DNA of 62,876 nucleotides, counting the filler, from Sluysia triapertura (Eukaryota): NCBI GenBank assembly GCA_046118255.1. It is 5 parts of 5 records of this genome, joined end to end, with 100 filler letters (N's around TTAATTAATTAA, not from the genome) between each part and the next. Parts side by side here need not be neighbours in the genome. Positions count along the whole stretch, not along the records: positions 1 to 13,143 come from JBJNIA010056993.1; positions 13,244 to 25,032 come from JBJNIA010170590.1; positions 25,133 to 37,435 come from JBJNIA010121527.1; positions 37,536 to 49,284 come from JBJNIA010173809.1; positions 49,385 to 62,876 come from JBJNIA010037259.1. One strand, written 5' to 3'. The position numbers were made by a program, and so were the translations under genes. This document shows, one piece after another, positions 1,968-55,299 of this stretch (position 1 is its first letter; each line of letters starts with the position of its first letter). The notes under the pieces were generated by a model. That model saw only the letters and a program-made list of their open reading frames with translations. It searched no databases and had not been told where the DNA came from.

Positions 1968-2430
1968 TGGGATGGTCAACCTTTTCATTCAAAATTCAAC
2001 TATTATTACATAATAAATATCACATTTCTTAACATTTCACATATTACTTTTTCAGACTTATTTAAATTTTAAATACTTTAGATCATTTTTAATTCACAAT
2101 TTCACAACATTAAAATCATAATTTACATCTAAACTTTTCAAATGTACATTTTAAAGTTAATACAAAGCATTTTAAGTTCACAATTCTTCAACACTCAATC
2201 AATAACATCATTGAAAAACATTAAATTCATATTTCAAGATCATTTTAAACATTCTAATCAAAATAGAATTTTATTTAAATTAATTTTATTTATGTTCCAA
2301 GAAAAGAAGTTTAAGATTTATATGTTAAATTTAGTTTTATTGTAAAAAGTTAGCAATACACAAATAGAGAAAAAAGATTCAATGTCATTTTCATATAAAA
2401 TTTCTTAAAAAAGAAAATAGATTAATTATT
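1968..2430 (+). repeat. C/A-rich leader repeat, subfamily R1, copy D
   Basis: Starts tgggatggtcaacc. 2073-2150 aligns with 7871-7950 (cacaatt.cacaacat..aaatca.aatt). Weak copy of the conserved block at about 2366-2420. Confidence 0.55.
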
Positions 2431-2451
2431 TATTTATTTTTAATTTCGTAA

Positions 2452-3260
2452 AATGAATTGAGCATGTCGTACACGTACTTATAAAAATTCTTTATTGATG
2501 CAAAATTCTGGAGCTTGTTCAACTAATAAACCAATATTAAATGTGCAAGAAGTTCCTGTTACAGCTCGTCCTTATGTTAGTATTAAAAATGAAGCTTATA
2601 TTCTTGATGTCTCTTTATTGGACATTTCCTAAATACAGAAATAGGAAAATACCTATTGATTATATTTGTGATGAAAATATGTGCCATGAAAAAGCACCGT
2701 TTTACGGCATATGGCGTTATGAAAGATGCACGTGTTTTAATGATCTTTTTGATGCAAAATTTAAGATTAGTGAATCAATAAGTCAGTATTTACGTCCTTC
2801 TGTAAGTGGTCGAAATTTTTCTGTTGAATAAATTATACAATATGAAATTTGACGATATAAAAGATAAATCCAGTTAACAGTACGAATGTATCAAGATTAA
2901 TACCAGCAAAGTAAATAAGTCACTTTGCATTTATCAATCAACTGAAACAGGTGAATGTGTCAAATATGATAGAAATTTCATTTTTTTTCTCATGGACATT
3001 TCGAACTGCAACGCCCTATTGACTGTATGCCAAATGTTGATGATCATCATGGATGAGTTCAAGGCTTATTATCAAGTTTAGGAATCACATCAGAATTAGA
3101 AAAATCATTCAGCAAGTGTGTTACAATTATCAGTGATTTTCAGATTCACAATTCATTCAGTTTTCCAAATCATGACATATCATCGATTTTTCTTGATGAT
3201 TATTACATTATATGTTTAATTTTATTTAGAGAATTTTATGGAATCAGTCTCATGGCATAT
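2452..3260 (+). pseudogene. Decayed coding sequence of unknown family downstream of leader D
   Basis: Codon-like, higher-GC tract: MN*ACRTRTYKNSLLMQNSGACSTN...; KIPIDYICDENMCHEKAPFYGIWRYERCTCFNDL.... Multiple stops and frameshifts. Confidence 0.45.
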
Positions 3261-3567
3261 TCAACAAAAATAAAACATTTTAATCAATTTATTAAAAAAA
3301 TTAAATTTTGTAAAGTTTTATGTAATATATGTTTTTATTGTTTTAATCATAATTGTTTAATAAATTATATTAAGACAATTAAATTAATTTTATTAACAAA
3401 ATATTTAAATAAGTATAATTCCTTAACTAAATGTTATAGAACGATAATAACCCAAACATTCCATGTATTTATCGTGCAAAGTATATTTTGCGATTTTGAG
3501 GATTACAAATTGATGAATTTTTGTGGTTTTATAGTTTTTACCATGCTATAAGTATGTGATATTAATG

Positions 3568-3860
3568 TGTGGTGAACTCAACTCGAAAACATAACTAAAA
3601 AGAAACTTCAACCCAAACTACCATAACTAGTAAAAACTCAACAAATTTCATATAACAACACTGATAACACACACAACAACTCAAAATTCAACAAACTTTC
3701 ACAATAACCATAACAATGATAACAATACCTAATTTTACGCATTTATTATTATTGTTGTAATCGAAAATGTTGTCATTAATCTATATTTACTATTACTTCC
3801 ATTGCTACGTATCTATTATTATTGTTATTAACTGAAAACTCATTAAAATTTTTATCTTCA
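3568..3860 (+). repeat. C/A-rich leader repeat, subfamily R2
   Basis: Starts tgtggtgaactcaac, has a C/A-rich strand, and shares ttacgcatttatt with the reverse complement of about 55058-55070. Confidence 0.5.
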
Positions 3861-5339
3861 AAATGCTTGCAATAGTTATTCTGTATAAAACTACACCAGT
3901 ACTAAAAAATAAACTCTAAGTTAATTGCAATCGGTACCGAAACATGTCAAAATACAACTTAAAGATGATATGAAAAAAAATTAGGTATTGATCGTGTTAT
4001 TGCAACCAGATCTAGTTAATGAAACTGTGCAAATAAAATGTAAAAATGGAACTGGTGTAAAGGTGTAAAATCTTTTCACAAAATGGATATTCATTGTTTA
4101 ATACAAGAGCATCGATTCAGAATAATAAATTTGTCAATATAAATTCTGCTATTAATAGTGATCATTGTTAATTTGCATGTAATCTTCTGGAAATTATTAT
4201 GAAGAACAGACACAACCACAAAAATCACAACAATTAGAATCAAATAATGAAGAAAATACATCATAATTTAAGCTATATCTTGCTAATTATTAATAAAAGT
4301 ATAACAAATTTTAAAATTATTGTGCCATCGATTTTTATTTGTACTAAACTTTGCAGTTAAAAATGTTTATATATTATGCTTTTTTAACAAATGACGATGT
4401 TGAAGATGAAGATGAAAATACTAATCACGGCAATATTGTACAGCATATGGATGATGAAACCAATGTTCGTGATAATGAAGATATCTTAGAATTAGACGAT
4501 TTGCCTGAAAAGGAAATCCACATTCATATCATCAATGTCATCATCATCATCTATCTACGTGAACCATTCAGATTTAGCTGCATTTCAACAATGTCATTTA
4601 TCAAAATTTAATTCCCAAAAGTTATTATTAGAACCATAATTTCAAAATATCAACTACAAGAAATATCATGACAAATACGTTTGTGTTGTCATTTGAAAAC
4701 AATTTAGTTTCTTATTGTCCGTCTCAATTATATGGGTCTCTTTTTTTATTTTTCTGGAGATATTATTTGTTAATAATTTTGTAATAATTTACATTTTATT
4801 ATTATGATTATTATTATGATTATTAAAAATAAAAATCAATATGATGTAGTAAAATTCTCTTATTAATTGTTTATCAAAAAGGTCAAGGAGTGAAACATTT
4901 AGATTTTCATCTGACATAAGTCTAAGAAACGTATTAGATAATTGTAAACCTGAACGTAAGGATTTGTCAACAATATCGAAATTAATGATCAAATTCATTA
5001 TCCATTTTAACAGATGGTTCTATTTTAAGCACTTCCATTTATATTTGTGTTATTTCATTGATATTGTCGATTTTTTGGGATTTGTGGTATTGATTTGTTT
5101 AGTGTTGTTTAACAGCAATTTAATGTGATTCTTGACCTTTATCAGAATTCTTATCTACAAAAAAGAAAAAGTAAAACAACCTAGACAGATTAGATAATAA
5201 GATTAGTTAAACTTATTGTGGAGGGTTATTTTATTAAAAGATTATTAAAATTATCAAACTTTTTAACAAGAATTAAACAAATTAACGAAATATTAAACAA
5301 ATGAAATAGGCTTAAGGCCTTTTAAAAAACTCCAACAAA

Positions 5340-5903
5340 AAGCATATATTTATAAAATCACAACTCATTCCAATTCGATAAAATGTCCAACAATAAAACT
5401 AACTCTAGTATAACAAATATAGCTGCATATAATTGAAACATAATTGTTAAAGTTGATGAAAAACAATCATTTGGTATAAAAATAAATGATAGTGTTATGA
5501 TCGAAATTAATATTGAAAATTTAGTAACCCAATAGTCATTATGAATATTATCACGAAGTAATGTCGAATTACTTACTCGGAGTAACAATAGTGACATTAT
5601 GAAAAACATAAAACGATATATTGCACTGAAATAAGTAATGAAACTACAATTTGTCTTTAATACACCGTATTCCAACTTTATGTTTGGGTTACATAATAAA
5701 AGTATTTTTCGTCATATTACATTATAATCTTCAAACAAACATGAAAATGATAGTGAGCAAATTAGTAAGTAAATCATAAGATAAATGAGTCGAGTGACTG
5801 TTGATGCAATACAATTATTACCACCGTACTTACAACGAATGATTGAGGTGGAACTAGCATAACAAATTACTGATGAAGATAAACATTCAATAAAGCAACA
5901 CAT
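5340..5903 (-). pseudogene. SERINC: Serine incorporator (SERINC/TMS-TDE) N-terminal pseudogene
   Basis: ORFs 5712..5903 and 5358..5675 are in the same frame, separated by one TGA. Motifs STVTRLIY, YR, R..IHN.YW..KF, FIP...F, FVILELVLLLD..SNWNEL*. Short internal deletion, truncated after WNEL, no introns. Confidence 0.88.
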
Positions 5904-6129
5904 TTCATTTTTGTCATTAATTCAAAAAAATCAATAATACTTATTTTTGTATTAACTTGAATGATGATACCAATTATAATGTTACAATAAAATCGCAACG
6001 TAATTTTCTAAAACTGATATTAAAATGCATTTTACATTAGGATATTGACATTTATTTTGTTAATGATTGAGAAAAAATGTAATATTATGTAATAAAATGT
6101 CCAGAATTTCCCATAAAGTTTTATTTATA

Positions 6130-7135
6130 ATTTCGTAGCATGGAAAGTGAAAAAGATCACTCATTTTTTATATATAATGCTTCTTCAATGTTAAGTGTTT
6201 TATTATGTACAGTTCATTAACGTCTTTTGGTGTTATAAATTTAAGATTTGGAGTTTTATTGAAATACTCAAGTTGAGTTCCAAATTGCAATTAATTAATA
6301 TCTGTTGATTTTATTTTTTGAAACGACTTAACTGTGCGTTTATCTGATTTATGATTTTTGTTTTTTTACTACATTAACAGGATTAATAGAATTAATAGAT
6401 TTTAATGATTCAATAATTTTGGCACTTTGTGATTTGATTTCATTATATTTAATACTTTCTGAAAACGTAAAGGAATTGTCCAATATTGCGCTTTTGTTCT
6501 TGGTTCAATATATGAAATACCTAGGTCGCATTTTTTAATTAAAATATTCGACGAAGAATGTTTCGGTACATTTGTTGTAATTTGATCCAAGCGTTGCAAG
6601 TTAACAATTTTAGAATCTATTACTTGTGTGTCATTCTGTATCTGATGGGCAGACATACAAAAAAGTTATTTTATATTACTTTGCTTTTCTTGTATTAGAA
6701 CAAACATTGTTATTTTTACTTCTAATAATTTGTTGAAAATATAAATATCCAATTTTATTTGATTTTTTGTTTAATGGAATTGGGATACTTTAAATTATTT
6801 TCTTGGCTTTATCTTTAGTATCAACAATATCTACTGAACCGGTGTACGAATTTTAACGTGTTTATATGACCTTCGTCGCATCATAGTTAATGTTCAATAT
6901 TTATGAAAAAATTTTTTAAAGTCGATTCTGCATGCTTCCTTTTATCTATGTAGTCTGTCATTGTCTTCGACAAAGTTGTGCAAGTTAACATATTTATATG
7001 ATTCAGCAAAAGTTTCTATTCGTCAATATTCTACCGGGAAGACACCGATCAAGATATCTATATTGATTTTTGCAAGTTTACACCAAGCGTTTGTCCAAAA
7101 ATGATTCCAATACTGGATCAGAATCGCATAAATAT
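6130..7135 (-). pseudogene. Decayed coding sequence of unknown family
   Basis: WNHFWTNAWCKLAKINIDILIGVFPVEY*RIETFAESYKYVNLHNFVEDNDRLHR*KEACRIDFKKFFHKY* followed by ORF 6402..6656. Stops and frameshifts throughout. Confidence 0.45.
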
Positions 7136-7169
7136 ACATATACATATTCACACAAACAAAAGAATAAAA

Positions 7170-7440
7170 GAAATGAAGTTTAAAACAGAAATCATAATGA
7201 TAACTATAATATAATTATTATATTATATGTTGATGATATTGTGATGTTACTATGCAAAAATTATTATAAGAATTATTAATATGATTGGATTTATAATAAC
7301 AATAACTATAGTTCACGATACTTATATACATTGACTATGTTTGTTTTTTAAATGAGTTAAGTAGTTTATTTAGTGTTCTCTATACGTAGGAAATGTTTTT
7401 ATTTGATGAAGTGTTGAAATTTTGATATGATTTTTCTACA
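7170..7440 (-). repeat. C/A-rich leader repeat, subfamily R2 (5' truncated)
   Basis: 7310-7430 aligns colinearly with 55160-55285 (ttatataca.tgac.atgtt...aatga...agta.ttt.tttagtg...gta.gaaatgtt...tgatgaa...ttttgatatga). Confidence 0.7.
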
Positions 7441-7774
7441 CTTATGTTATAAAATACATTTTTTTTAAATTTTAAATTTCTCTATTGATAAATGAAACAA
7501 ATTAATGAAATGTGACTAAACTTTTAAAAGAAAATACTGAATCAAATAATTAATATTGAATCAAAAACATTACTCGTAATTAAGCCTTCGGTTTTTAGAA
7601 TTAACGTGACGACAAAATTTAATAAGTCATTATTGATTTAAAATCCTGAAGAAGTGTCCACCTTTAAGGTCATAAGCTACTTTCTGTAGGTAAACCCAAT
7701 AAAGTTTTATTTTTAATGTTAATTAAAGCACAATCTAAATAAAATTCTGCAAATTTAAATTTTGAGTAAAATTT

Positions 7775-9065
7775 TAGTGTCCAACCTTTACAACCACTAA
7801 AATTTTATTAAAAATTAATATCGTTTCTTCTCTTTTATCATACTTTAACAATCATACATTCATCTCTTACATACTTTTTAAAATCAATTTATATCCACAA
7901 TTCCACAACATACAAATCACAATTACACTCAACGTTACCAATTTACATTAACTAATCCACCAAAACATGTACTCGACATTCACAATAATCCAACAACAAA
8001 CGCATTCGAGATAATCTACTCAATACTTTAGAACCCTTCATTTTACACTATACTTTAATATTTAATACTTAATATTTAACAATATTTATTTAATAGTTTA
8101 TCTGCTTAAACTAAATCACAGTCACAAACTTATAACACATAAACCACAATTACATTTAATACCATTTGATAACACCAGCAAATCTAATTGAAACATATAA
8201 AACACCTACTTCACATCTTCGAATAAATTACATCTTAAATTCACTATTCGTCTATGCATAATCATCAACAACACAGTACAACAATACCAAAAACATCAAA
8301 CAAACAAATCGCACAAAACATTGTATAATAACATCTTAAATGTACCAAGAGTTGTATTTTAGTTGCCTTTCTATATTTATCAAATTACAATCTTCTCAAT
8401 AAGCCTTATCCACGATCTTCCAATACTTAAATCTTGTTTTCAATTATAAACTTCTATCAATATCTAATATCTTATTCTAACATTCTCTATTTCATTTTAT
8501 GATTCAAATCAATTAATATATCTTTAAAGATTAATTATATTTATCAATTCTTTCGAAACAATTATTACTCAGAAATTTAGTCCCAAATAAATTTTTATTT
8601 CATTTCAATATCTTAGAAATCTTTAAGAATTTAAGGAAAATCGTATATAGTTTTATAGAATTCAATTTTATACAACAAAATAATAACGATAACTCGAGCA
8701 CCTTGTTATCGTCGCTATTTCACTTAATTTTATCAATTTTTGTTTCATTTTTTGTCTTTTATATGTTAAGAAATAAGGACTTAAGAGAAAGAAAGATTAT
8801 GTAAGTTATAAAAAAGAAAATTTATGCGTTGTTTTTAATTTTCTTTTTATTAATAATAATAACAATATTGTTATTGTTATTATATTATTATCAATTATTA
8901 AATTAATTATTATTTAAATTTTTATGACACAAAATTGATTACTACCATCACCAGTGTTGACAGTGCTCATCACAATTTTCATTAACGTGTCAACACTGAT
9001 GATGACCAACCAGTCATTATTTTTCTACATGGAGTTCGTTGTTCTGGCCATCATCCAATCAGGAT
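7775..9065 (+). repeat. C/A-rich leader repeat, subfamily R1, copy A, with hairpin/CCAAT module
   Basis: C/A-rich strand; gaaagattatgt (8791) and agaaaatttatgc (8815); actaccatcaccagtg; 17-bp inverted repeat 8946-8962/8988-9004; CCAATCAG at 9055. Confidence 0.7.
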
Positions 9066-9267
9066 TAATTTTATTGAAATGTACATTAGTAAACCCTAAT
9101 TTGATGACCAAATAATAAACTTGAAACCAAAAAAACTAAAAATAAAAATAAAAATTATAAGTGAATAAAGAATAAGTGAAGAGATACCACAATTATATTA
9201 TTAAATTTATCAAAAATCAGTTCTTTCAATTAATAAAAAATTTTTCTAGTTTGATGTTACTTTAATA

Positions 9268-10560
9268 ATGACAATTCAATCAACGCATAAAAAAGTAAAA
9301 AGAGGCCATCAAAAGTTAAAGTTAATTCATTTAAATGAGCCTCTCAAATATGTTCCTGTGTGGAGACTTAATTGTTCATTTACACAAATCAACCATGCAA
9401 AATCAAGAGCTGTTTTATTAAACAATGATTATAAACCTGATCGTGAACAAAAGTTCACGATCAATCTTTTAACAAAGAAAATATGCCTAGCCGATATAAA
9501 TTCAAAAATTATTATATTTCGATATATCAAAGTTTGAAACGACTATTTAATATTAATGATCCGAATTATCTTTATGCTTTTACTAAAAAGAAACCAGAAT
9601 GGAGTCCGAATAAGAAATCTCTGTTGACATATGATCATCATTTTTTGTCGAGATTATAACTAGCGATGATGTTGAACAAGTATATTATTTATTAGAAGCG
9701 TATCATACATACAATTTTGATTCGTATGGAAAAGTTCTTAACCTCTTGATTTAACTATGTATCGAATAATAGTATTTGATCAAATTTACAAAAAGACTAA
9801 AACGATAGTATTATCAAAATCAGTTCGCAAACGCATTCCAATTAAAGATAATACAGCAAGGATCCAAACATATGTTAAAAAGTTATTAGATGAATCATAC
9901 TTTAATTATAGCGATTGTTCTGCGAATTCACAAAACACTCTCATTCGGTTTGACTGCGCCAAACTAACCACTGAAAGTGATGTTATGTTCAATTCTATTA
10001 AGATTTATGTCTCAAACGAAGTTCCTAATCATGCAGATATTTTAAATTCTCTCATAATGATGTTGATCAACAAAAAGTATGATATTGCGATTCAGTATCC
10101 GTCAATCCAAAAGCAAGCAAAATCAATCAAAATTAATTACGATCGTCTCGTCGTTGAATTGGACAATTTAAAACCGGCGTTTATTTCAATTAAATCTTTT
10201 ATTGATGAAACTTTTTATATTACAATCGAAATGACTATTGCCGGACCGAAAATTAAGTATCAATTCCATTTATATCTTCAGTTTAACTGTTCGTTTATAT
10301 ATTGATCTAGTGAGGACACGAAGTTTCATCAATTCCAATATTACCCAAAAAGCTAACCATAACGGTCATGTTAAGATCATGTCTTTGGCAATTTTTGATT
10401 GTTTTCATATAATTTATTGTCTTATTATGTTGTACTTTTTAGATTACGCGCACAGTATTTGGATTTACGAAGTGCCACGTGGTGCAGCGAAAAATTCAAC
10501 AATCAAAAGTTCAACATTCAAAAGCAATTTAAAGTTTTCATATCTATTCTTTTGTATATT
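9268..10560 (+). pseudogene. Orphan gene family member A (frameshifted)
   Basis: ORFs 9268..9537, 9757..10305 and 10238.. are linked by frameshifts. Shares ordered motifs with 22450-23170 (EI...DV.Q++; VSNE..N....L......KK; LTVR++.+L). Confidence 0.6.
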
Positions 10561-13143
10561 AAATAAAATTTCCTGTGTAGGTTATTATAAAAACTTTGTC
10601 ATTTATATAAGTCAAGAGAAACTAACATTTAAAAGAACTAAATATATGTTAAGAAAAGTTAAGAAATGATGTACTTACAATTATTGAATGATAAATTTTC
10701 TAATAGTAATTTCGTCATAAGAATATGCAATTCGGTAGATCTAATATTAAATTGACATTTAACAAATATATAATTGTTAATATCTATCTAAAAACTTTAA
10801 ATAAAATTAGAACTCTAAAAGTTTATACAGGATACGAATTTATTTCATTAATTTCGAAACTCGGCCAAATAGCAACATTACTCAGTTGCTGTCCGACTTC
10901 AAAACAAACTTTTTCCCAAAATTTAAGAAAAAACAAGAGGTTGTAATAGGAGGATAATTTAATAAAAAATAAATGAATAATCTAATGAAAGCGGATAATT
11001 TGTTGAAGCACTAAATGCATTCAATTTTAAAATCACAAGTGTAGAAATATACATTTATTAATATTTCATTTATTAACAATTCATATTGTTAGAAATGTTA
11101 ATATGTAAATGTAAATGGATTGTTAGATATATCTAGCTATTTTTATTTACTTTTAAAGAAGATTTGAAGAATAAAAATTGTGTTTGATATGAAAAGATTG
11201 AAAATCGAAACTAATCAGAAATTGAAAATTGAACAGCTGAATACAGACATATCCAGTAAGAGATTGAAAAAATAATACATTTTGCATATGACATAGATAG
11301 ATACATAGACAGATAGATAAGCGTAAAAAATGTTGTAGATGTGATAAATTTGTTGAATTCGGAAATAATTCGATTATGAAGAATAAAACGATTCAAAATT
11401 AGTAAAATAATGACGAAATAAATAAATTGTTTATTTGGTTGAGATAAACGTTGAAATATAAGTTTTAATTTAAATTCTCTATATTATTTGAAGTTTATAA
11501 ACATTTATTTATTTAAATGCACGAAAATTTAAATAAAAAAATAAATAATGCTTACAAAACATCAAAAGAAAATTTGTCACACTTAACAAAATATTTTATT
11601 TTAATTATTATAATGCTGCACTTCCTGGAAAAATTATTGTTCCAGATGTATATTTCACATGTACCAAAGTTAATATTAAATCTAGTGCTCAAATATAATC
11701 AAATATTTTTACCTTTCAAATAACACTAGTGATATTCTATTCAAATTTCTGATGCTTATATATTGTTTTTCTTTATTTAGAATTTATAGTCAATAACTAT
11801 TCACTTATCATCATTTGAGATCTTTGCTAACCTGCATCTATCTAATCCAATTTAACTCCTTAATAATTTATTTGTAACGGATCCTATAGAGTATATAATA
11901 TATACACTAATTATTTACACTTTTTATTATCGCTTTGATACTATAATTGTACCGCGTTTTATAATTCATATTATAATTATAACTATGTATTTTATTCATT
12001 TATATTCACCCTGCTAGTATTTGTTTGGCTAATAGTATTCACTTTTTAGTGGATTTTCCGGGTTTTAATGGCGTCTGTGTCTAAACCATGATCTTGTTTG
12101 GAAGCTAACTTAGTATGATAGGTACTTTGCCTTTTTTTCTTCATGTTAGTTTCATAAAATCTGGCTTCCACTTTGGTGTTAAAATGTGTTTATTATTACT
12201 TTTGCTGTTTATGAAAACGTAATATAGTATTTTTAAACGTTCTGAGTTATAAAGTAAATGCTCATTGATATTTCATTATTTTAAAGTAACTGCAATGCAG
12301 TCTTATTTAAAATATTTCTATTTTCAAAAAATTTTCAAACTTGGGTTATCAAACTTTAGTTGATTTTGTAATAATAATAAATTTTCAGTAACATTATTAT
12401 TAAACAAATTCAATCTAACTAAACGATAATTAGTTTTACAACATATAATACAAAAATGTTGAAATTTATTTTGAAATCTAAGCATGAATAATTTATCAAT
12501 AAAAATTGATTACAAAATTTATTGCTGAGCTTTTTGAAATTAATTCATTGTTTTGCAACATATGTATCAAATATTAAAACTAACAAGAAGATAATGTGCA
12601 CCATCTATTTATGTTTTTTATGCTTAACTGAATTACGTTAAGAAATACCATACGTTTTCAACTTCACATTGGGGCATTAAACTATTTCAGTTTGATAAAG
12701 AAATTTAAAATTTAGAAAATAAGCAACAAAACATTTAAATATAAAATAAAATAGCTTTTATCTTTATTAAATATACAGAACAGAAATAAATTAAACACAG
12801 TGTAAAGAATAAACAACAAAGTGTGAGAAATTAAAGAGTAAAGCAATAGAATAAATCGAGAATTTATTGTGAGTTCACCAATGTATTGGGCTTACCAATT
12901 AAGGCCAGCCGTTGGATTTTGATAAATTAAAACAAAGTCTCAAAAGTGTAGGGTGTATTAAAAACTTTTAGCTGCCTGGAGGTAAATGATGGTATAAGAT
13001 TTATTTAAAAGAATTAATAACAATAATCAAGTTTATAAAATGATTTTTCGTCGATTCCTTTATATGAAATCTTTAAATGTTATTGTAAATCATAAAACGA
13101 CTAATTTTATATTTGGAACTATGTAATTTGTAATTTATGAAAA

Positions 13144-13243: not shown

Positions 13244-13267
13244 ATAATAATAATAATAATAATAATA

Positions 13268-13315
<48 letters not shown>

Positions 13316-13316
13316 G
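13244..13316. repeat. (AAT)n(ATT)n inverted microsatellite
   Basis: An AAT run switches directly to an ATT run. Confidence 0.9.
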
Positions 13317-17054: not shown

Positions 17055-17386
17055 TATTTGATTTGTCTACTTAATTTCATTTATTAAATTGATTTGCATT
17101 TAAATTTATTAAAGAGAAATTGTAGATTACATAAAAATATTAACTACAGAGACCCTACGTTAAGATTAAAATATTTCAAAATTTCAAAAGTCGCAGACAC
17201 GCTTACTGAACACTACTATAAGTCATAACTCGAATCCGTAAAACAATCATTACATTTGTGGGTTTTTACTTTTCTGTAATAAAGCCCAGTAATAGCTATG
17301 GTAATACTTATACTAATAATAATAATAATAATAATAATTATTATTATTATTATTATTATTATTATCATTAGAAGAGTAATAATAAC

Positions 17387-43800: not shown

Positions 43801-44389
43801 TAATTGTACAGTTGTGATTGCACGAATCTATATATATATATATAGATTCTTTTAAATCATTCTTTTTATGTTAGCGTGCCGCCAAATTTATTTGTTATTA
43901 AATGCCGCGACAAGAAAAAAGTTCAGGATCACTTACTAAACTAAACTAAAAATGATAAATATCAAAATAATAAGTGTAGAGATCTAACATTATATAATCA
44001 AGAAACAAATTTTGCGTTCTGTAACCCATTAAATTGAAAAAAATTTCAACTGCAGTCATTATGTCTTTGTCTTTATTTACCAGCTCTAATTGAATATATG
44101 AATTAATTGAACATATGAATAATCATGATATTATTCGAAACAAATTAAATTAAAGTGCGAATAAAACTAAATCGACTTTCGGAAAATAAAATAAGTTTTC
44201 ATAGTCAATTGAGTAAGTTTTATTATAAATTATATATACAAATAAATGTAATATGAACAATTATGTATTTAAATAGATATAAACAATAAATGAAAATACA
44301 ACTGTGAAACATAATAACCTTAAATATTATATATCAAAATCATAAGCAATACTGAAAGTAATCATAGTGTCCTTATAATTATAACATAA

Positions 44390-44468
<79 letters not shown>
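44390..44468. repeat. (AAT)n microsatellite
   Basis: Seen directly. Confidence 0.95.
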
Positions 44469-44469
<1 letters not shown>

Positions 44470-45746
44470 GCTTTAATTTGTTTCATATTTTACAGAAATT
44501 AATAGCTTGTAATATTAACAGTAGTGCAGTAACTATTTAATCCTTTATATTGATTAATGAACAGTGAATATAACGTTAGATTATTTTTATGTTGTAACAT
44601 TATAATGAAACTGAAATTAATAAATAAAATTGTTTATTATCTAATTTACAATTTACATACTAAGCTGAAAATATGTTAATATTTATAAATATTATAATAT
44701 TTAGAAGTTGAATTATGAAATAATTATATGTATCTTATTTACAGAAATAAGATAATTTTTAACTTCCTCATAATTACACTGTTTTTGCATTATTTTTTTC
44801 CGTATTATCGAAGATAAATTTTGATATCTTATAAAACCTTAATAATCTTTACGCCTCTATTTGTAATACAATTAGATGAGTTCCACCACGACTTGAAAAA
44901 TTATTACAAATAGCTTACCTGAAAAGTTAATGTTAAATATATCCTTTAAAGCAGGTATCAATTAGCAATCTCAGAATTATATACTCAAAGAGATATCATC
45001 AATGTACTTTAGTAAACGATAGTTTATGCATTAATTTTGACTTTCATATCGCGCTTTGGGAAGATTAAACTTCAAACAATTGGATTCCATAAAATAAAAA
45101 ATTTTTGAAATGATTTAAATTTAATCATGATCATACGAATATTCGTTATAGAATGAAAAATTACAAGGTGCAAATTGAAAGTAAAATAATTTAATAAACA
45201 ATTAACAAAAAATAAAACGAATTTTATTTTTAAAATTAATTTCACAAATCAGTTTCTTAGACCAAATATCAAATATTTGTAAAATTAAAAATTGTTTACT
45301 TTATAAATTTAATGTGATCCATTCAAAATATATCCAAAAACATAAATTTATAATTTAAATATTGATTTAATAAACTTCACAACTATTATCGATTTATATT
45401 GATAATCTATAAAACTTTTTTCTACAAAAAGTATCAATTCGTGTGCACATAATACCGGCTAAAATTAGTGAACAATTAAATTAACATATTAATTAGCAAG
45501 TTTATAACTTTGTATTTATAAATTTGAACGTATAAATTTTATTTCATCGAATTTTCGGCACATACGCATTACATTAGTCATAATTTAATTTATCATTTGA
45601 TTCCTATATATAATGTGTTAGATAATCATTGAGAACAAACAAGTATTACGCAATATCTACTCAATTTAGTAATACAAAATTTGAGTTGACTTATGCTTTA
45701 TTGTTAATTTGTAAACGAGTTTAATTAACAAAAAATATACAATTAC

Positions 45747-46080
45747 CTCCGTCGAGGTGGCACAACGGGCAAATCAAATTGAGGTGCTACAGCAGCACCA
45801 AGAGAACTTCGCAAACCATTTGAATTACGATCAAAAAAAATTTACAATATTTTGTGAATTTCTGTTTTTCTGATCTATTTTTTTTATATCGAGTTGATGA
45901 TTCAGAAGACAACTCATGAGGTACTCTTGAACGAGTTTTCAATGGTAAAACCAATTCATTAATATTTTCCAAAGGCTTGGAGAATGCTGATGTATTAATA
46001 TTTTCAAGCTGATAACGCTTAGGTGCATGACAACTTTTGGTTGATGTTGATACAGTACTTTCTTCGGGTTCAATAACAAT
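45747..46080 (-). CDS. PARD3: Par-3-like gene, exon 3 (contains an apparent frameshift)
   Basis: IVIEPEE...SAFSKP...LPLKTRSRVP.EL...; after a shift at a T8 run, FFDRNSNGLRSSLGA (compare Par-3 FQRDNARSSLSA). Ends |gtaatt. Confidence 0.5.
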
Positions 46081-46113
46081 CTAAAATACTAATTTTCAAA
46101 TTCATAAAAATAC

Positions 46114-46218
46114 AGTATCATTATCCATTAATATTTCATCTATAACATCATTCAACGTAACCAGTTCATTTGTTCTTTTGAGTCGTAAGCGAACATTGTT
46201 CACAAGCAATTTTAACTC
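46114..46218 (-). CDS. PARD3: Par-3-like gene, exon 2
   Basis: ag|ELKLLVNNVRLRLKRTNELVTLNDVIDEILMDNDT|gt, comparable to Par-3 ILDLDD.+.DV.DDKD. Flanked by 60-nt and 33-nt GT-AG introns, both phase 0. Confidence 0.6.
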
Positions 46219-46278
46219 CTAAAACATCGTGTAAATTACAAGAATTAATATGTAGCATTTTAAAAAAATTATGCAAAC

Positions 46279-46395
46279 CTGAGAAAAATGAGAATTAAAT
46301 TTATTGCAAGCACTTTCATAGATGTCTTGAACTTTTAATGATTCTGGTAGTGTTACGCTTTCTATATGTCCTTTGTAATAAACACTTATGTTCAT
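46279..46395 (-). CDS. PARD3: Par-3/Bazooka-like gene, exon 1 (N-terminal PB1-like domain)
   Basis: MNISVYYKGHIESVTLPESLKVQDIYESACNKFNSHFSQ|gt fits the Par3/HAL N-terminal domain pattern M.V.V.F....V....+.V.+L...A..R. Confidence 0.6.
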
Positions 46396-48749
46396 TGTGA
46401 AATTAAATAAAATTAAAAAAATCTAAGGCATTTTTTAAATTTTATATATCATTGTTTATCGCGGACCATTTTAAAAATAAATAAAATCACAAATTTTACT
46501 ACTACCAAACGTACGCCTGAAATTCAGTTAAATTGATGCATTAAAACAAATAACGAAATTAAATGAATATAATTGTATTATTATTTTTGCTTAGCAACTG
46601 CTTCAGTAGGTAAAATTTTAAAGCTTATGCCTATTCCTTTAAAAAATAATATATAATTTAAAGAAATATATACAAAATAAATATACTTTTATATGTAAAT
46701 TAGGAATTTTCATAAAATTAAGTGTTCAGGATAAAATATTAGTTTTTATACATAAGAATTTTGAAGGATACTTTTGTTACAGTTTTATTTTTCACCTTAG
46801 ATCTTCTAACAAACTTATTAATAAATTTCAATTCTACTTTTCGGCTCTTGAATCTTTTATCTTTAAATTTCGGATGACTAATTATAATTTTATAAATTTT
46901 ATTTATAAAGTTATTACGTTTCAAGTACCAATTAATCACTCGTGAATTTAAAACCTGTCAAATTTTTTTATTGCTTTGCATTGATATAGTCGTGTGGATA
47001 AGGAAATTAAACATTCAGTGCCGATATGATTATTAAAACTCAACTTTGAAAATTCAATACTACTAATCCAAAGTAAAACTTTATCAAAAAACTACTGTTT
47101 GAAGTATTATAAGATAGGTATAAGTATTTTAAATTAATTGATGTAGCCATTAAATCACATAATGCTATGAGTTAAAGTTATTATAATTACATTTGTGCAA
47201 TTCGAAAGTGTTTCACTAACATTTTGTGAACATAAAAGAGTTAATAGATTATAAATCAAATTTAATTCTGATATATTATTAGAACGTAGCATTAATCAAA
47301 ACAAAATAGTGCCAATATCACCGAGACACTTATCAACTAGGTTAACATTTGTGATTGTTTTATTATGTATTTGTACTAAGTTTTTAAAGTTAACATTTTC
47401 TATTATGAAAAGCTTGAAACCACTTGAATTAGTTCTTACACATGCTACATTAATAATACTAAACAAACTCAAGTCATTTAATTTAATCTCATTATATCTT
47501 CTAAAACTCATTATATCTTCCTTTTTTCAATATCAGTTTTAACGAGATGCATCTCTATGGGAAGAATGTCTGATTAAATTTTAAGGTGCTGGTGGTTACT
47601 GCGGAAGAAAACATGTTTACGCATGGGTTGAGCATGTACTCTAAAATGATCGGATGGTCAGTGGATACGGAAGAATAAAGTATGTTATTAATATTAGTTA
47701 TCAACTTATAAATTGCCAATTTTTTAACAAAATATAATATTTACACCTAAATGGTTTACGCAATGAATTTTTAATTTCCTTTAAACATAAATTATTATTA
47801 ATCTCTAGTTTTAAGATTATGAGTATAAATTTAGATATAATTTGAGTTTATAACATTAGGTGTAAATTAATAAACGCTCGTTAATTAATGTAATTTTAGG
47901 GGAAAAATTCCTTATCAATTGAAGAAAAATAAAACACAGAATAACAGAAGGTATCAATGAAGTAGTTCTTATTATGTACAAATGTTACTTCACGTCATAG
48001 CCAAGTTCCCTTTCAGCGACATCTCCATTATCTTTATTTGGTCTGGATAAAGCAACATTTTGGATTCACCTGAATATGTCACACTTTTTTTATATAGTCT
48101 TGCCTCGGTTTTTTTTCTTTACCTTAGTAAAAAAATATTTTTTATTCATTGGATCCGTGTACAGTCTACGGCTTACTACTCAATGAGGGCGTGACTGTAA
48201 GTGCGACATAAACAAAATTCTTTACAAAACTTTTATTAACTTAGAAGGTCCATTTATGCTTTGTCTATGGTCTTTATTATATAAACAACACATTGAACAA
48301 AACAATTTTTTATTTAAATGAATGTATAAAATATAACACATATATCAAACGTAAAAATTGTTAAAATGTATCAACAAACAATTTATAACTGGTATCAAAT
48401 TGTTCAGAATGGTAGTAATAATAAGTAATTAAACTATTAGAAGTTTCATTCTAATAATAATTCTTTAATTTTAAAAAGATTTTAAAATTGTATTAACACA
48501 ATCTTCAAATGCAAAATATTTAAGTAGATTTTAAGTTTCACGTAAATGAAACTGACCTTAATATAACTTAATATAAATGACCTTAAAAAAACTTACGTTT
48601 ATCATCATAATAGAATTGTTCTGGATAATCGATATAAAAAATAAATTCCAAATTGAATTAACTGACGTCTTGAATTATCTTTTTAACTTTTTCATTGGGA
48701 GCCTTTTAGTTAGATAGAGAAAAGAATGTACTAACTATTTTAACTAAAA

Positions 48750-49155
48750 TCTCTGCCCGAAGGCTGTACAAATAATGATTTTATTTTCAGACTAGATAGT
48801 TCTTCAGATTCTTGCTTGGGATTTTTCTTTTGATTCACAGGGTTAGATTTTGCTGCCTGATCTAGAACGTGGACTGAAGCATTTCCTGGAGGTGGAGCTT
48901 TATTGGCTATAGTTAGTGATTGTCTGATTGTTGGGTACCGGCACAAGACATGGTTCGTGTATATTCAATATGACATCTTTACCATTCCCATAGAAATATC
49001 TACAAGTAATTTATTTACAGACGATTTACTCAATTTGAAAGTTTTAAGTATGTCAATATTCTCGGGGCTCATTGTGCCCAGAGCCGGAACGATTAAGGTA
49101 AAGATTTTGACCTTACGCCTGACGATTCTGCCAAGATGTACAAGATTCCTACATT
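48750..49155 (-). mobile_element. RLE-type non-LTR retrotransposon (NeSL/R2/R4-like) C-terminal fragment
   Basis: KVKIFTLIVPALGTMSPENIDILKTFKLSKSSVNKLLVDISMGMVKMSY*IYTNH matches the V..+.V.ALG.......L......+....S..I...H tail of restriction-like endonuclease LINEs. Confidence 0.6.
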
Positions 49156-49284
49156 AGATATATTGATTTGAAATGCTTGTTGAAAGGTTGAAGTTATTTT
49201 GATTTTTAATGATGATTGCGAAATAAATTTACATATATTATAATGTTATTACGAATGATTGAGGATGATGGGTATGGTTGTGTG

Positions 49285-49384: not shown

Positions 49385-49465
49385 AAGAACTTTGACAGTT
49401 GTTGTAAAACTGCTTTTTCTATCAATTTTGATAAGAGCGTTATATTTGATATGGGTCTGTATCAA
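49385..49465 (-). mobile_element. L2/CR1 LINE reverse transcriptase fragment
   Basis: YRPISNITLLSKLIEKAVLQQLSKF is the canonical start of the CR1/L2 RT domain. Confidence 0.8.
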
Positions 49466-50937
49466 TGTCTAAAGTTGAAGTATATATTTTAAGTGAAATA
49501 AAAATTAAAAGAAATTATGAACGAGGATTGATCATTAAAGAATTTAAGAATAATAAAACTAAAGTTATCTCTAAAATATCAGAAGATTACTCTTGATTGT
49601 TGTCTGTAACAACCATAATTAATTTAAACATTCTTCGAGTTCTTCTTTATACATCTTCACACCCATGAATAAATTAAATGCCATAACACATATTCGGTCA
49701 TCAAACGAAGTAGTAACTGATGAAAAAGATATGAAACATACGTTCTTTGTCAACACAAAATCTTCAACTAAGAATAAAATGCTTGAAATTTATGAAATTA
49801 AAGGAAATTATAAATTCTCTGTAACCAAATTAATAAAATTAGTAGTTTTCTTTCAACTAAAAACTATAAATATAATTAATTCATTCATATATAAAACAAT
49901 ATCTTGGTATATCACCTACCCTCTAAATTGGTGTCTGGAGAACACCACCACAACATTATTTTCTAATAAAGGAATACATACATAAGTAAGGATATTGACG
50001 GTTTAACATTTAATGTAAGGTAAAATGTAGAATATAATCGTTCATACAAGAAACTTCAAACTAGAAATAAAAATAATATTCTTAATTTCTCCAATAAAGA
50101 CTAATCGTATGTCTGTAAGTAAAGAATTGTAATAATACTTTTAAAAATCCAAAAGAAAATTTAAGAGACAATACAACAAGATTCTCAAATCAAGGTTAAG
50201 TATAATAAGATTTGCTGGTATTTCCTTATACTTATTTAATTCTAAAGGTCCGCTTGCGATGTACGCTTTAATCCTAAGGAGATGCACTCGTAAGTAACAT
50301 CACGTAAACTTAAAAAAGCTTTTCTTGTAATTGAAATATATGCAATTGTGTACTCTTTTCTTGTAATTAATAACAAAGATTGTAAATCTAGTCTATTATA
50401 ATTTCTGAGGGTTTTTATTTTAAAGTGTTTTTGTGTTTTTATGTGTTTTATATTCTTATATATCAATATTTTAAAAATGTTTTTATTATTATTATTATAA
50501 TTAAAATAAAATAAAATAATTTAAATAAATTTAAATAAAATTATTTTAAATAATTAATTTTAAATCAAAGAAAATTGTTTTAATAAATTAAAATTTTTTA
50601 AAATAAAGAAATTTGTTCTTCAAATTAAATAAATCTATTTTTAGAAAAAATTATTTTAGGAAAAATATTAATCATCAAGAAGAGAAAATTAGTATAAATA
50701 GGAAGATAAAATTTTAAACAAGTAAGCAAAAGAATTATAATAAATTAGAATAGAAAGTTTAGAGAACTGAAATAGATCAACATTTTGGAAAGTCAATTAT
50801 TTAATTTGGACCCAGATATTTTTCTATTTGTACCATGTTATCAAACTACAAGTAATTTTTGTTACATAAGTTTTAATAATATCACCTTAATTAGGGATAT
50901 TTAAAATTTTACTCAAACTAAAGTAAACATTTTCTAT

Positions 50938-51292
50938 CAACACCTTAATCTAAAAAGGGGTGAGAAATTTTTATCTAAAATCGAATTTTCAATTAACTTT
51001 AGAGTTAAATTGTTAAAGTACGTATCATTATTATAAACATTTTTGTACGCGTTTAGTTTTTTGTATAATAAACATTTAGATAGTTAGACAGCTTTCTGTT
51101 TTCTTTTGAGAAGTTAATAAAGTAATTTAAACAACACAACTAAATAAAATATTAAACTCTATTTTCATTCAACAACACCTTAATCTAAAGAAGGGTTGTG
51201 TAAAATCATAAAATCACACTTTTCATACAACATCTCATTAAGAGAGTTGTGAAATCTATTTTCTTTAACAACACCTTAATAAAAGGGTTGTG
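50938..51292. repeat. Four dispersed hairpin-like direct repeats CAACACCTTAATCTAAAGAAGGGTTGTG
   Basis: Copies at 50938, 51173, 51228 (diverged) and 51269. Confidence 0.7.
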
Positions 51293-51519
51293 GAACATAA
51301 CTAAAATCTAACGACTTAATTAGTCAAGATAAGTTTTATTAAGTTGTATTGCAAGAGATTTAATTGTAGACAAACATTAAGAGTAATAACTCGAACCAGT
51401 CGATTTACTTAGGCTTTAAGTTAAGTTTTAAAATTCCAAAACCTAATAATACGTCTCCAAGTTTGGTATGAAACGTATATATTAGGCGAACCGACCTATC
51501 GGATAATTTGTTAAGTATG

Positions 51520-51590
51520 ATGAATGATTTAATTTAAGCGCTTTTGAGTACTTACTTTGCAGTAGAAATGAGCGCAATATAAATTAAAAA
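51520..51590 (+). mobile_element. L2/CR1-like LINE 3' UTR fragment
   Basis: tgaatgattt..ttaagcgcttttgagtacttactttgcagtagaaatgagcgcaatataaatt matches 25145-25200 and 31638-31685. Confidence 0.65.
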
Positions 51591-52149
51591 TCATCAAAAA
51601 CATTAAAACGATTTTTATAGATATCGTTTGAATTAAATTTTCTGGTCACTTATAAATTAAGAATCAGCTATTAATTAAAAAATTTAATACAACTAATAAT
51701 CGATTAAAATTAAACCATAATACCAGAAAAAATGAATATCATTTCTCAAAATGAAATAATTTAGCAAACAGAATATCTTCAATATAGGAAAGTTTCGAAG
51801 GAGTACATAAATGTAACTTTATTTTTTAGTTTTATTATAATGGAATGAATTGATGCACTTTTTAAAACATTTTATTTTTTCTTTTCTTTAACTTACAAAA
51901 TAATGAGTTTGTGATGGTTTGATGAAGAGAATATGATTATAATTATTTAAAATTAATACACTATAATTGAATATTTGTAAAATTGAATTTAATTTTTTAA
52001 AATTTACTATTAAAACTTATTGTACTCAGAAATATTACGTTTTCTCATTAAGTTAATTAAGAAAATTATTCTAACATTTAGCAAATTAAAAAAAACACAA
52101 TTGAAGGCCTAATTTTATTAATGTTGCAAGAAATGTTATTGTTGATCGA

Positions 52150-52764
52150 TCTTCCCACATGCATCTTGCCAGACCATGTTTCGACTATTGAATAAAAATA
52201 TATAATTAAGTTATCATCATGATAATCATGTTTCATCCGCTTGTAGAATATTAACACTACCAATTTTTATCGACGATTCTATACCGTCAATGTCTAATTT
52301 TATCCAGTTAGATTCAGTACTAAATTGTATTAATGTTTCACATGATGTTCTACAAGTATTTCTTTCTATAATATCATTTGACGTAGCACAGACTAATTCG
52401 ACATTAACAAATTGTGGATTACGTAGCAGAAATTCGAACTTCTTTTCAATCTGGTCATAGCATTTTGTTAAATAAATTTGTATTCGTTTAAAATTCGTGA
52501 ATCTTTCGCCATGTCTTCGAATAATCGAGAACTTAACATTTTATCTACACCGCAAATCATTAAATATTGAATGGAATAAAAACTTATTTAATCTGATTAG
52601 TGTAATGAAGCATCATTAAAATCCGATCAGGAGTGGCTAATATAAAATGAAAATAAGAAATACTAAGTTCTGTTAGTTGATCAGTCATATCTATATTTCC
52701 AGTTAAACACATTATTTTTAGATTTAATCCTTCAATCGTTTTCATTGATTTACCACACTCTTGG
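52150..52764 (-). pseudogene. DEAD-box RNA helicase internal fragment
   Basis: GLNLKIMCLTG..D...Q...L....HFILATPDRI (motif Ib); ..VDKML (motif II remnant); LLRNPQFVNV; VLIF (motif IV); MH.G. Contains stops. Confidence 0.75.
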
Positions 52765-53498
52765 ATTAGCTTTCCTTCTAAATTCATAAGTAAAATCTCA
52801 AAAGGTTGAATCTTTTCTACATTTAAACCGTATCTTTCTGGATCTTGTTTAGCAGAGGTAAAAATCCTCTTATATGATTCCCAGTAATCAGAAAACGCAC
52901 TAGGATTTATGAGATTAGCATCAAATGATATTAGAACAAAAAATAAGGACGACATTGTTTTATGTATAGTCTTAAATTTTAAGTTAGATGCATCACTCAA
53001 GAAAGCTTAATGACTTGATTTTGTGTCCAATCCAGTGAGTTGTATTGTTTTTTAATACCTTCATTCGCGCGGTTAACGTAACTCATTATATTGTTTAACG
53101 TTGGCGTAAACGTATCCATCATGACGGAACATATAACAATTCATCATCTTTTGGTTTTTTACATTCACGACAAAGCTGGTAGAAGTTTAATGAGCTTCTT
53201 TTAACAAATATTCCATTTCAGAATACACAGTAGATAAAACAATTACTTTATTAAAAATATTATTATCAGAATTAACCAAGCTAAGAAATGTAGTAGACTC
53301 ATAACAATCGTAATTCATTTTAATTGGTTATAAATAAGAATCAATATTAAATTTTCCATAGCCTTCATGAATATCTATTTGTTCATCTATATGTTTATTA
53401 AATTCGGATAAAAATGGTTCATATTATCGCTTAACATTTTCTTCAGCTGATTTGAATGAACCATCGTTGAATTTTTCAAACTTCCATTCATTATACAT
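52765..53498 (-). pseudogene. WASHC4: WASH complex subunit 4 (SWIP/KIAA1033) N-terminal fragment
   Basis: MYNEWKFEKFNDGS; PIKMNYDCYESTTFLSLVNSDNNIFNKVI; FKTIHKTMSSLFFVLISFD...DYWESYKRIFTSAKQDPERYGLNVEKIQPFEILLMNLEGKL align with roughly the first 260 residues of WASHC4. Frameshifts and stops. Confidence 0.88.
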
Positions 53499-53619
53499 AT
53501 TACAATTGTTTTTATTTTTGTCCACGAAAAAATATTAAAAAAATTGTTTTTAATAAAATTTCTTACAAATTATCGCATCTATCGATAAAGTTTTATTTCT
53601 AGCCATTATTAAAACTAAT

Positions 53620-54639
53620 TTGTGTACTGTCACTGGCTGACCAATCAGAGTAAGAGTTGATGAAGTATTTGTAATTTTAGTTGGTCAGCTAGTAAAAGTG
53701 TTAATCAATAATAATGCGATGATGATGTGTGATTAACTGTCATCAATTGACAGTTAACAAAGTAACACAAGAATGATTTTTAAAAGGAAGATGAAGGCAT
53801 CAACCAAATTTTACAAATAATTGCAAATACACTTAATTAATGATGATTATAATAAAAATTAATTGATGATTAAAATAAAATTTTAAATTAAAGCATAAAT
53901 TCTTTTCTTAGACGTAAAACATGAGCTTTCTATTGTTTATTTTTGTTATTCTGGACATAATTAAGATATATTTATTACTATAATTGTTATAGAAGATGAA
54001 TGTTAAAAGGTGGTGAACTTGTAATGTTTTAATTCGTGCTTTTACATTTACAATGAAATTTAGCTGTTATTTGACTGTTATTCTAATTCTGTAAGGTAAT
54101 GGATGAATGTTTTACAAGAAATTTTTAACGTTTTAAACTATAAAATGATTTTGATGAATCTGAACGAAATAAAATATGGTGACGATTTTAATGCCTTTTA
54201 AAGTAATTGTAAGATGCAAAGGAATGTGGTTATGGTTATGCTGTTATAGGACTATGAGTAAAATATTTATTATTAATTATTTGATGTTTGTTATTACTCT
54301 GAAAGTGTATGTACTTTTATGTTATGAGTATGAAATAAGGATGTTTTGAACAGGTTAGGATAAAGTTTTAGTGGGAGTAGAGGAAACAAAATGTAGATAG
54401 GTTTAGATGTCATGGAATGTGATTTTAGGTGAAGTGTGTTGAATTAAATTTAAAATATTTCGATTAATTTTTAAAGTACTTCTTTGTTGATTTTCGATGT
54501 TGAGTATGATTTGGATGATATGAGATTTCGTGTTTAGATTGTTTGGAGGTATTACAAATTGTGAAATGTTCTGAATTGTGATTTTACTATATATTGTTAA
54601 AATAAAATAAAATTTTAAAATATTGAGTTGACCACCACA
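53620..54639 (-). repeat. C/A-rich leader repeat, subfamily R1, copy C, with hairpin/CCAAT module
   Basis: Starts tgtggtggtcaact; gaaagctcatgt and aagaatttatgc (53893-53930); hairpins 53733-53757 and 53632-53644/53681-53693. Confidence 0.75.
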
Positions 54640-54899
54640 TGGTTCAGCCTCAGTATGCGGGTTACTTTCTATGGAGAGACCGTACATATTTATAATAACA
54701 GTATTTTTAATTAATGATAATAATTTTAATTATGACAACAATAAAAATAATATTAATAATAAGAATAGCAATTTCAATAATTATAATAACAATTGTGATT
54801 GTTAATATAATTACAATAATAACAATGATAATAATAAAAGATTCGTTAAGTTGATTAATATTTTATTGTTTAGATTTTTCTCAATTTTAAACCTAGTTA

Positions 54900-55299
54900 A
54901 ATTGTTTAAAGTTAAAATTAAAATGTTTATTGTTACTCTTTTCGATAATTGTTAAATAAAATAACGCTCTCATTAAAATGATGTCAGGATAATTATGATA
55001 AATGATAATTGTAATTATTATAATAATAATTGTATCAATAACGATAACAATTATGAGAATAAATGCGTAATTTAATGTGATAATGTTGATAGAGTTATAG
55101 TGATATGAAATTATTATGAGAGTCATTATTGTGGTAAAAGTTATGATAACAAAAACATAACTAATGATAATTATATACAATGACCATGTTTACGTTTTGA
55201 ATGACTCGAGTAATTTGTTTAGTGCTTTGTTTATGTAAGAAATGTTCATTTGTGATGAAATGTGTTTGTGATTTTGATATGAAAATGTGGAGTTCACTA
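54900..55299 (-). repeat. C/A-rich leader repeat, subfamily R2
   Basis: Aligns with 14088-14290 and 7310-7430. Starts tagtgaactccac. Confidence 0.72.

Follow-up and report, generated by a model that had tools for sequence, protein, structure and literature searches.

Repeated leaders and decayed host-gene cargo form bounded TG...CA units in Sluysia triapertura and may represent oversized solo long terminal repeats

A stretch of 62,876 nucleotides from the genome of Sluysia triapertura (GenBank assembly GCA_046118255.1), called the window throughout, was analysed for C/A-rich leader sequences that are followed by decayed gene pieces, the cargo. The window consists of five contigs of 11.7-13.5 kb (1-13143, 13244-25032, 25133-37435, 37536-49284 and 49385-62876) with artificial spacers (N44-12 bp-N44) between them; its GC content is 21-31% per 2 kb and CpG is near expectation. 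An initial annotation had proposed a non-autonomous, gene-fragment-carrying mobile element family of open class. The repetition of the leaders and of most cargo, the sense bias of the cargo and the presence of bounded units with target duplications bear this out: leaders and cargo belong to a real, amplified, cargo-carrying mobile system.

Judged by their sequence, the leaders are real and form two separate families, R1 and R2 (copies a to d each), without detectable relation, as none of the 16 R1-R2 pairs exceeded z 2.4 when scored against local shuffles. Four of the six pairs among the four R1 copies gave z 4.5-8.4 and the remaining two z 1.6 and 1.9; the R1 cores are 60-65% identical and share a sharp TG start. 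R2 comprises three clear copies, R2b, R2c and R2d (z 10.5-17.7, 66-72% identical). R2a scored z -0.3 to 1.4 against these, its likeness being confined to the first 12 bases, and its read-depth bin is 349 as compared to about 10,000 for the other leaders. Thus, of the one family of eight leaders originally described, the four R1 copies and R2b, R2c and R2d stand, as two families, while R2a and the single family do not. A C>G-skewed block begins at all eight proposed positions, in agreement with the C/A-rich strand noted before. The TGTGGTG opening ascribed to well-preserved copies is exact in only three of the eight (R1c, R1d and R2a), and the block GAAAG...TTTATGC, thought to be common to R1, is present in R1b, R1c and R1d and missing from R1a. 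Profiles built from the leader copies detected no further copy in the window. The R1 motif pattern occurred at four metagenome loci of 35-43% GC without any profile or blastn match, and these were treated as chance.

In R1b, R1c and R1d the GAAAG block is followed by an ATT-rich linker, a perfect hairpin and a CCAATCAG box, which we take to be the NF-Y promoter motif, just before the cargo. The hairpin arms are copy-specific, with 11 bp in R1b, 17 bp in R1c and 10 bp in R1d. These leader ends hold three of the four CCAATCAG boxes and three of the five perfect GC-containing stems of at least 10 bp in the window. The R1b leader extends over 7773-9110 (+), with a high-depth part to about 8883 and then, at subfamily depth, the hairpin (8952-8998) and CCAATCAG at 9055. 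R1c (21469-22340, +) displays the C/A-rich block, GAAAG...TTTATGC at 21995-22045, the linker, its hairpin at 22231-22298 and CCAATCAG at 22294. R1d (53600-54639, -) contains the GAAAG block at 53930, hairpins of 10 bp (53757-53733) and 9 bp (53689-53636) and an inverted CCAATCAG at 53641. The shorter R1a (1968-2460, +), recognized by skew and pairwise comparison, lacks the CCAAT/hairpin block. R2c (14057-14488, +) is possibly a short cargo-less form with neither end fixed. The ends of R2d (54905-55355, -) are likewise not fixed; R1d lies 660 bp downstream and is possibly nested in R2d. The doubtful R2a (3568-3900, +) shows the TGTGGTG start and C/A skew only, and the DNA downstream of it is near single-copy. 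A possible ninth leader (20308-20700, +) with a TGTGGT start and C/A skew is not significantly like R1 or R2, and a C/A-rich stretch at a contig end (24940-25032, +) may open another one.

Three of the leaders open bounded units of 2224-2720 bp with TG...CA ends and an exact 5-bp target duplication. Right ends were searched downstream of each of nine TG starts as CA followed by the five bases that precede the start. Unit R1c (21469-24149, +; 2681 bp; TGTGG...TCACA; duplication AGATG) is inserted in a GLG1-like pseudogene, and its CA plus 5-mer match is unique save for one AAGATG 6-mer match within the leader at 22014. The reading frame that stays open for 102 codons beyond the duplication backs this boundary. 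Unit R2b (5217-7440, -; 2224 bp; TGTAG...TCCACA; duplication ATAAG) is backed by the edge of the multi-copy signal at 5258-5343, the right end lying 40-125 bases outside this edge. A second, weaker exact match for R2b at 4716 sits in single-copy DNA and was rejected. Unit R1d (51920-54639, -; 2720 bp; TGTGG...CATCA; duplication AACCA) is the weakest of the three, with 51920 as the lone exact match in the 5.2 kb searched. CACA with an exact 5-mer duplication 1.5-3.5 kb downstream was found for four of the nine starts (simulated P(>=4) <1e-5); counting only R1c and R2b, whose boundaries we trust, the simulated P(>=2) is 0.008. The last 40 bases of the units are alike (R1c-R2b p 0.043; R1d versus R1c and R2b p 0.010 and 0.007), the best of the other 18 candidate-end pairs reaching p 0.053, and in leave-one-out searches the right ends of R1c, R2b and R1d ranked 19, 109 and 11 of 6563.

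Further matches were discounted because the starts of R2c and R2d are uncertain and the ends unlike those of the other units. The candidate R2c ends 16918 and 14488 were set aside. An R2d end at 52413 overlaps R1d, lies within an open reading frame (ORF) and has a flank belonging to a 12-bp stem; R2d at 55355-49932, with a CCAAT duplication and a net length of 2.7 kb, has a chance probability of 0.04-0.15 and an end unlike the others. Near candidate right ends we also observed extra copies of TGTGGTGG at 24096 (+) and 49952 (-), 54 and 20 bases before the respective end. A near-palindrome around CTTAAG recurs at 5311, 19449, 24759, 24813, 24897, 58826 and 60447, with one copy about 100 bp within unit R2b as measured from its right end and three copies that follow the GLG1-like piece.

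The decayed coding DNA reported to follow most leaders on the same strand was confirmed by stop density: 49% of 80 overlapping 300-bp windows in cargo sense have two or fewer stops as compared to 9% antisense and 8% of 1018 windows elsewhere, in zones drawn partly from ORFs. A sense-strand coding bias is present in seven of eight cargo zones. In R2b the cargo includes a SERINC piece of 181 codons with one stop (5361-5903, -; Pfam E 2e-16), which starts at an ATG (5903), is 3'-truncated and runs colinear with residues 9-189 of human SERINC3, free of insertions and introns (E 1e-20). It is preceded in frame by a decayed frame of 407 codons with 16 stops (5931-7151, -) that has no family match. 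The cargo of R1d begins with a WASHC4 N-terminal piece of 247 codons with seven stops (52758-53498, -; Pfam WASH-4_N, E 4e-20). Opening with an ATG (53498) some 150 bases past the CCAAT box, it matches the WASH-4_N profile at 32-77 and 134-229 without an intron-sized insertion, and is 3'-truncated. Fused to it in frame is a probable internal piece of a DEAD-box helicase (52590-52757, -), for which the matches are weak (Pfam DEAD E 0.048; PDB cgh-1 E 0.049), and no longer relative of the WASHC4-DEAD ORF came up in a word search. SERINC and WASHC4 as previously named cargo are thus confirmed, and the DEAD-box assignment is weakly indicated. The spans captured from SERINC and WASHC4 hold several introns in most animals.

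The third R1d cargo ORF (52229-52540, -; 104 aa) has no accepted family match; a weak match to poxvirus capping enzyme (E 0.016-0.4) was not accepted, and its RHGER motif presumably resembles those of histidine phosphatases. R1c carries one decayed frame of 357 codons with ten stops (22410-23480, +), with coding-like DNA on to about 24090 and no relative of the frame among 1.84 billion proteins. The repeated cargo of R1b (9230-10750, +; right end near 10736-10855 by contigs) consists of decayed frames including ORF 9742-10302, for which searches gave no relative; that of R1a (2430-3560, +), also decayed and repeated, has no fixed right end. The orphan cargo frames had no Pfam or NCBIfam match. 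Members of orphan gene families, formerly supposed among the cargo, were not recovered, since at the protein level none of the pairs among nine zones showed homology (best z 2.6); one cargo DNA pair reached z 4.7 with eight shuffles only. Pfam scans covered 450 of the 855 ORFs of at least 30 aa in the window and 249 of the 301 in leader and cargo zones, and in the latter no transposase, reverse transcriptase, integrase or Rep/helicase was detected, in line with the earlier statement that none is attached. No tRNA was found.

Repetition beyond the window was measured in contigs of one public run (X1), in which 63% of sampled words of 51600-56000 are present and from which the assembly may derive; these contigs were aligned over 60-13143 only, at 80% likeness. 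Since summed contig depth gives no copy number, it was used as a rank only. Single-copy or unbranched pieces have a depth of 7-18. Leader sites in R1a, R1b and R2b reach summed depths of 9,900-36,000 in 48-110 contigs and sites in three cargo blocks 110-3,600 in 3-37 contigs, mostly 300-3,600 in 8-37. Relative to single-copy depth, and as ranks, leaders are about 1000-fold and cargo tens- to hundredsfold repeated, most of it about 30-200-fold. The top depth of R1b ends near 8883, and its hairpin/CCAAT block is at cargo level (862 at 8927, 377 at 9098). The R2b leader-cargo border (7172-7183) is cargo-like with 490-690, and 7-31 contigs carry shared variant letters in the SERINC piece. Single-copy DNA follows the cargo of R1b and R2b, and depth is close to single-copy beyond R2a and beyond 10855. 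This pattern suggests subfamilies of leader plus cargo.

The far higher depth of leaders than of cargo, the near single-copy DNA after R2a and the possibility that R2c and R2d are cargo-less forms of about 400 bp would also fit ordinary solo long terminal repeats (LTRs) or miniature inverted-repeat elements of 0.4-1.3 kb that lie by chance beside separately amplified pseudogenes. However, the duplications enclose leader and cargo together in three units, cargo is sense-biased in seven of eight zones, border depth matches that of cargo, and the third and fourth contigs have neither leaders nor Pfam-detected pseudogenes above the cut-off. We therefore regard such a chance adjacency as quite improbable.

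The TG...CA ends and 5-bp duplications indicate an insertion of the integrase type and exclude Helitrons, which narrows the class left open in the initial annotation; both ends with a duplication could be defined in three units and not for the other starts. The absence of Helitron TC/CTRR ends, terminal inverted repeats (TIRs) and paired LTRs was confirmed within the bounded units, where neither a long TIR nor a long direct repeat was found (|z|<=1.7). Helitrons and Helentrons make no target duplication and have TC...CTRR or poly-T ends with a terminal hairpin. The hairpins, the microsatellite-like linker, the head-to-tail clustering and the co-oriented cargo would be in keeping with Helitron/Helentron or Penelope/Terminon capture, which is nevertheless highly improbable given the 5-bp duplications, the missing TC/CTRR ends and the internal position of the hairpins. 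An Rfam scan (E<=0.5) found no hammerhead as would be expected of Penelope/Terminon elements and one weak plant microRNA match, although decayed copies could be missed. An origin as processed pseudogenes made by long interspersed elements (LINEs) was rejected, as there is no poly(A) and the N-termini are kept instead of being 5'-truncated; A-runs in the units are at most 6-7 long, none being above 7. Pack-MULE or Pack-TIR elements were likewise rejected on account of the lack of long TIRs on both sides and the 5-bp duplications; those of MULEs are 8-11 bp.

Both LTR and Ginger elements are established to insert in the integrase manner, with TG...CA ends and short duplications (PMC2836005). The units could be non-autonomous DNA transposons with eroded TIRs, "Pack" elements similar to Ginger2/Tdd or GingerRoot, which would be moved by a transposase of the integrase type and carry retrocopies or intron-poor genomic pieces. 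The TGTNR starts and 5-bp duplications of TDD-4/5 fit (PMC2836005), gene fragments are frequent in GingerRoot elements (PMC6839031), and a few pairs of left ends and reversed right ends across copies reach p 0.01-0.03. Yet Ginger TIRs are 40-300 bp long, whereas the 40-base ends of the three units are not complementary (p 0.13, 0.16 and 0.48) and a 300-base test was null; animal Ginger duplications are 4 bp, and intron-free cargo beginning at the start codon is unexpected under genomic capture or LINE retrocopying. We consider a Ginger-like origin rather unlikely.

The known object with TG...CA ends, 5-bp duplications and no TIRs is the solo LTR, and the intron-free, N-terminal cargo points to mRNA as its source rather than genomic capture of the Pack-MULE type. 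We give about an even chance to the reading that each unit is an oversized solo LTR of a Gypsy/BEL-type retrotransposon, in which the R/U5 part was made of captured host mRNAs by template switching of reverse transcriptase. The initial annotation had treated solo LTRs as contradicting its proposal; the leaders probably do belong to solo LTRs, yet the proposal is kept, the whole leader-plus-cargo unit behaving like one solo LTR.

The ends, duplications, cargo orientation and repetition are demonstrated, and from these we infer every step of the following route. The 5' leader would be U3 with a promoter at its end, and the CCAATCAG box and hairpin at the leader end of three R1 copies may be part of it in a putative order U3-R-U5. 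From a primer just within the left LTR, reverse transcriptase would copy the right end of about 40 bases; first-strand synthesis would then switch to a co-packaged host mRNA, reach its 5' end and transfer back to the element RNA. Capture at this stage is suggested by cargo that keeps its 5' end, has lost its 3' end and introns and is chimeric; the predicted outcome of such switching is 5' halves that lack introns and poly(A) and, where switches are repeated, chimeras. The cargo would be present in both LTRs of the progeny, so that each cargo may found a subfamily, and recombination between the LTRs would leave a single solo LTR, filled with cargo and framed by the duplicated target bases. The interior of the element, now lost, or an autonomous relative would have supplied the enzymes.

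Several observations weigh against the solo LTR reading. Only three of nine starts have a trusted duplication, none that we trust being found in the downstream search for R1a, R1b, R2a and the 20308 start, and R1d ends in CATCA, for which the chance probability taken alone is 0.08-0.25. The likeness of the right ends is weaker over 80 bases (p 0.06-0.08) and was chosen from seven candidate ends (21 pairs) in AT-rich DNA. No two-LTR element, primer binding site (PBS), polypurine tract (PPT), gag or pol adjoins any copy, so that the element class is read from the termini. Among the eight of 15,221 X1 pieces displayed, no contig joins leader and cargo in another copy. As the parent genes were not found, intron loss is deduced from colinearity with human and Pfam sequences, and most cargo, having no family match, might stem from the element itself or from a virus.

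No convincing PBS or PPT was found in the window and no direct repeat after the cargo. A weak 54-bp direct echo in R1c (p 0.03) led to a 54-bp mini-LTR model, which was rejected as it fits this unit only (p 0.29 and 0.18 for the other two). The lack of internal retrotransposon DNA in the five contigs, the finding that all resolved copies are one unit of 2.2-2.7 kb, and the perfect hairpin of each hairpin-bearing R1 copy, kept with a differing arm sequence, would also suit an undescribed single-unit retroelement composed of promoter leader, mRNA cargo and short right end, inserted by a borrowed integrase and never having two LTRs. However, full elements are usually fewer than solo LTRs, and assemblies in short contigs are interrupted at long repeats, so the absence of full elements here is expected; moreover, there is no known priming or end-regeneration route for such a retroelement. 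We consider it unlikely.

LTR-mediated retrocopies (Tan et al. 2016, PMC5131818), for which maize Bs1 and HERV-K/FAM8A1 are cited there, are 3'-truncated, without poly(A), can be chimeric and re-amplify. The units described here resemble them in their intron-free, 3'-truncated, poly(A)-less pieces, chimeras and non-autonomous re-amplification, that is, in the mode of working. A point against our reading is that those retrocopies replace internal ORFs between two LTRs and are few per genome, a position that the units do not share: the cargo lies in one TG...CA unit without a second repeat and differs in nearly every long copy. Ogre LTRs measure 1.9-6.5 kb (PMC6431247), and the units share this length range, TG...CA ends, a 5-bp duplication and the lack of TIRs with solo LTRs of long-LTR Gypsy elements such as Ogre and planarian Burro. 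Extra ORFs of Ogre/Burro are described in the interior, whereas host mRNA fills 60-85% of the putative LTR here. The units thus have the terminal features of solo LTRs and were not placed in any named family. Host small-RNA sequence is found within the LTRs of Cassandra, Helenus and Ajax (PMC10886601), terminal-repeat retrotransposons in miniature, which also have 4-5-bp duplications. Their host sequence is a single fixed small RNA (5S or tRNA), set in short paired LTRs accompanied by a PBS and a PPT, while the cargo here is variable, protein-coding and 1.6-1.9 kb long. With Ginger1, Ginger2/Tdd and GingerRoot the units have in common the TGTNR-type start (here TGTGG, TGTAG and TGTGG), integrase-type ends and, for GingerRoot, gene fragments; they differ by lacking TIRs (40-300 bp) and by the duplication, which is 4 bp in animal Ginger and 6 bp in GingerRoot (PMC2836005, PMC6839031). 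Pack-MULE and Pack-TIR elements are also non-autonomous gene-fragment carriers, some of them multicopy, but need flanking sequence of a TIR element on either side and take up genomic DNA; the survey in PMC8277862 left out intron-free cases.

LTR-mediated gene capture with the cargo inside the LTR itself is probably a new arrangement. Coding mRNA within an LTR or solo LTR was not described in the literature searched, judged by title and abstract start in mostly non-subscription papers. In the main text of PMC5131818 the terms "solo" and "strong-stop" do not occur; LTR-internal cases could be in its supplements. Tentatively, and with slightly more doubt than trust, we envisage a family in which the terminal repeat is a swap-in cassette for 5' halves of host mRNAs, with thousands of promoter-bearing leaders and many subfamilies that each spread their own chimeric, intron-free gene piece in units of 2-3 kb, either as giant cargo-filled LTRs or as an undescribed single-unit integrase passenger without terminal repeats. 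LTR gene capture is so far known as an occasional event in the element interior. If true, capture in the LTR would duplicate the cargo in each cycle, place it directly behind the element promoter and leave it as a solo LTR, which would give an animal a way to shuffle exons and form multicopy pseudogenes on a large scale. The model predicts that strong-stop template switching biases the cargo towards 5' ends, and it would account for units that are missed by LTR, TIR and Helitron finders and that swell the number of orphan genes counted.

The surroundings of R1c give some indication of its host context. The left half of the GLG1-like (cysteine-rich repeat) pseudogene (20759-21468, +; Pfam Cys_rich_FGFR E 3e-5) abuts the unit and had no PDB relative. 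After the duplication it is continued in frame by an ORF (24155-24459, +); this frame is open for 102 codons as compared to 0 and 21 in the other frames, and searches gave no family match identifying it as GLG1. An intact 87-codon KIF3A exon (17387-17647, -), flanked by an AG acceptor and a GT donor, lies in the same 11.8-kb contig, which holds no second exon of this gene. Identity to the best relatives of the exon is 53-64%, and the leading named matches are brachiopod, mollusc and annelid proteins. From this exon, with which the intron-free cargo contrasts, a divergent and probably spiralian animal host with long introns seems indicated, and the R1c unit, the GLG1-like pseudogene and a Tigger remnant are probably located inside KIF3A introns. 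The remnant, a decayed Tigger/pogo transposase (DDE_1, HTH_Tnp_Tc5; 15747-16817, -), lies on the strand opposite to R2c.

Other repeats are present in the window. Very high-depth repeats occur at 687-765 (46,800 at 762) and 12733-13143 (bin 16,800), the second being unlike R1 and R2, and a third dispersed repeat family at 25151-26135, 28211-28306, 31501-31719 and 51415-51587. Peptides encoded at 31331-31651 (+) and 49387-49500 (-) may resemble CR1/L2 LINE protein and that at 482-710 (+) piggyBac transposase; none of them has a Pfam match. Finally, a GC-richer block (60800-62000, 35-41%) contains stop-poor frames.

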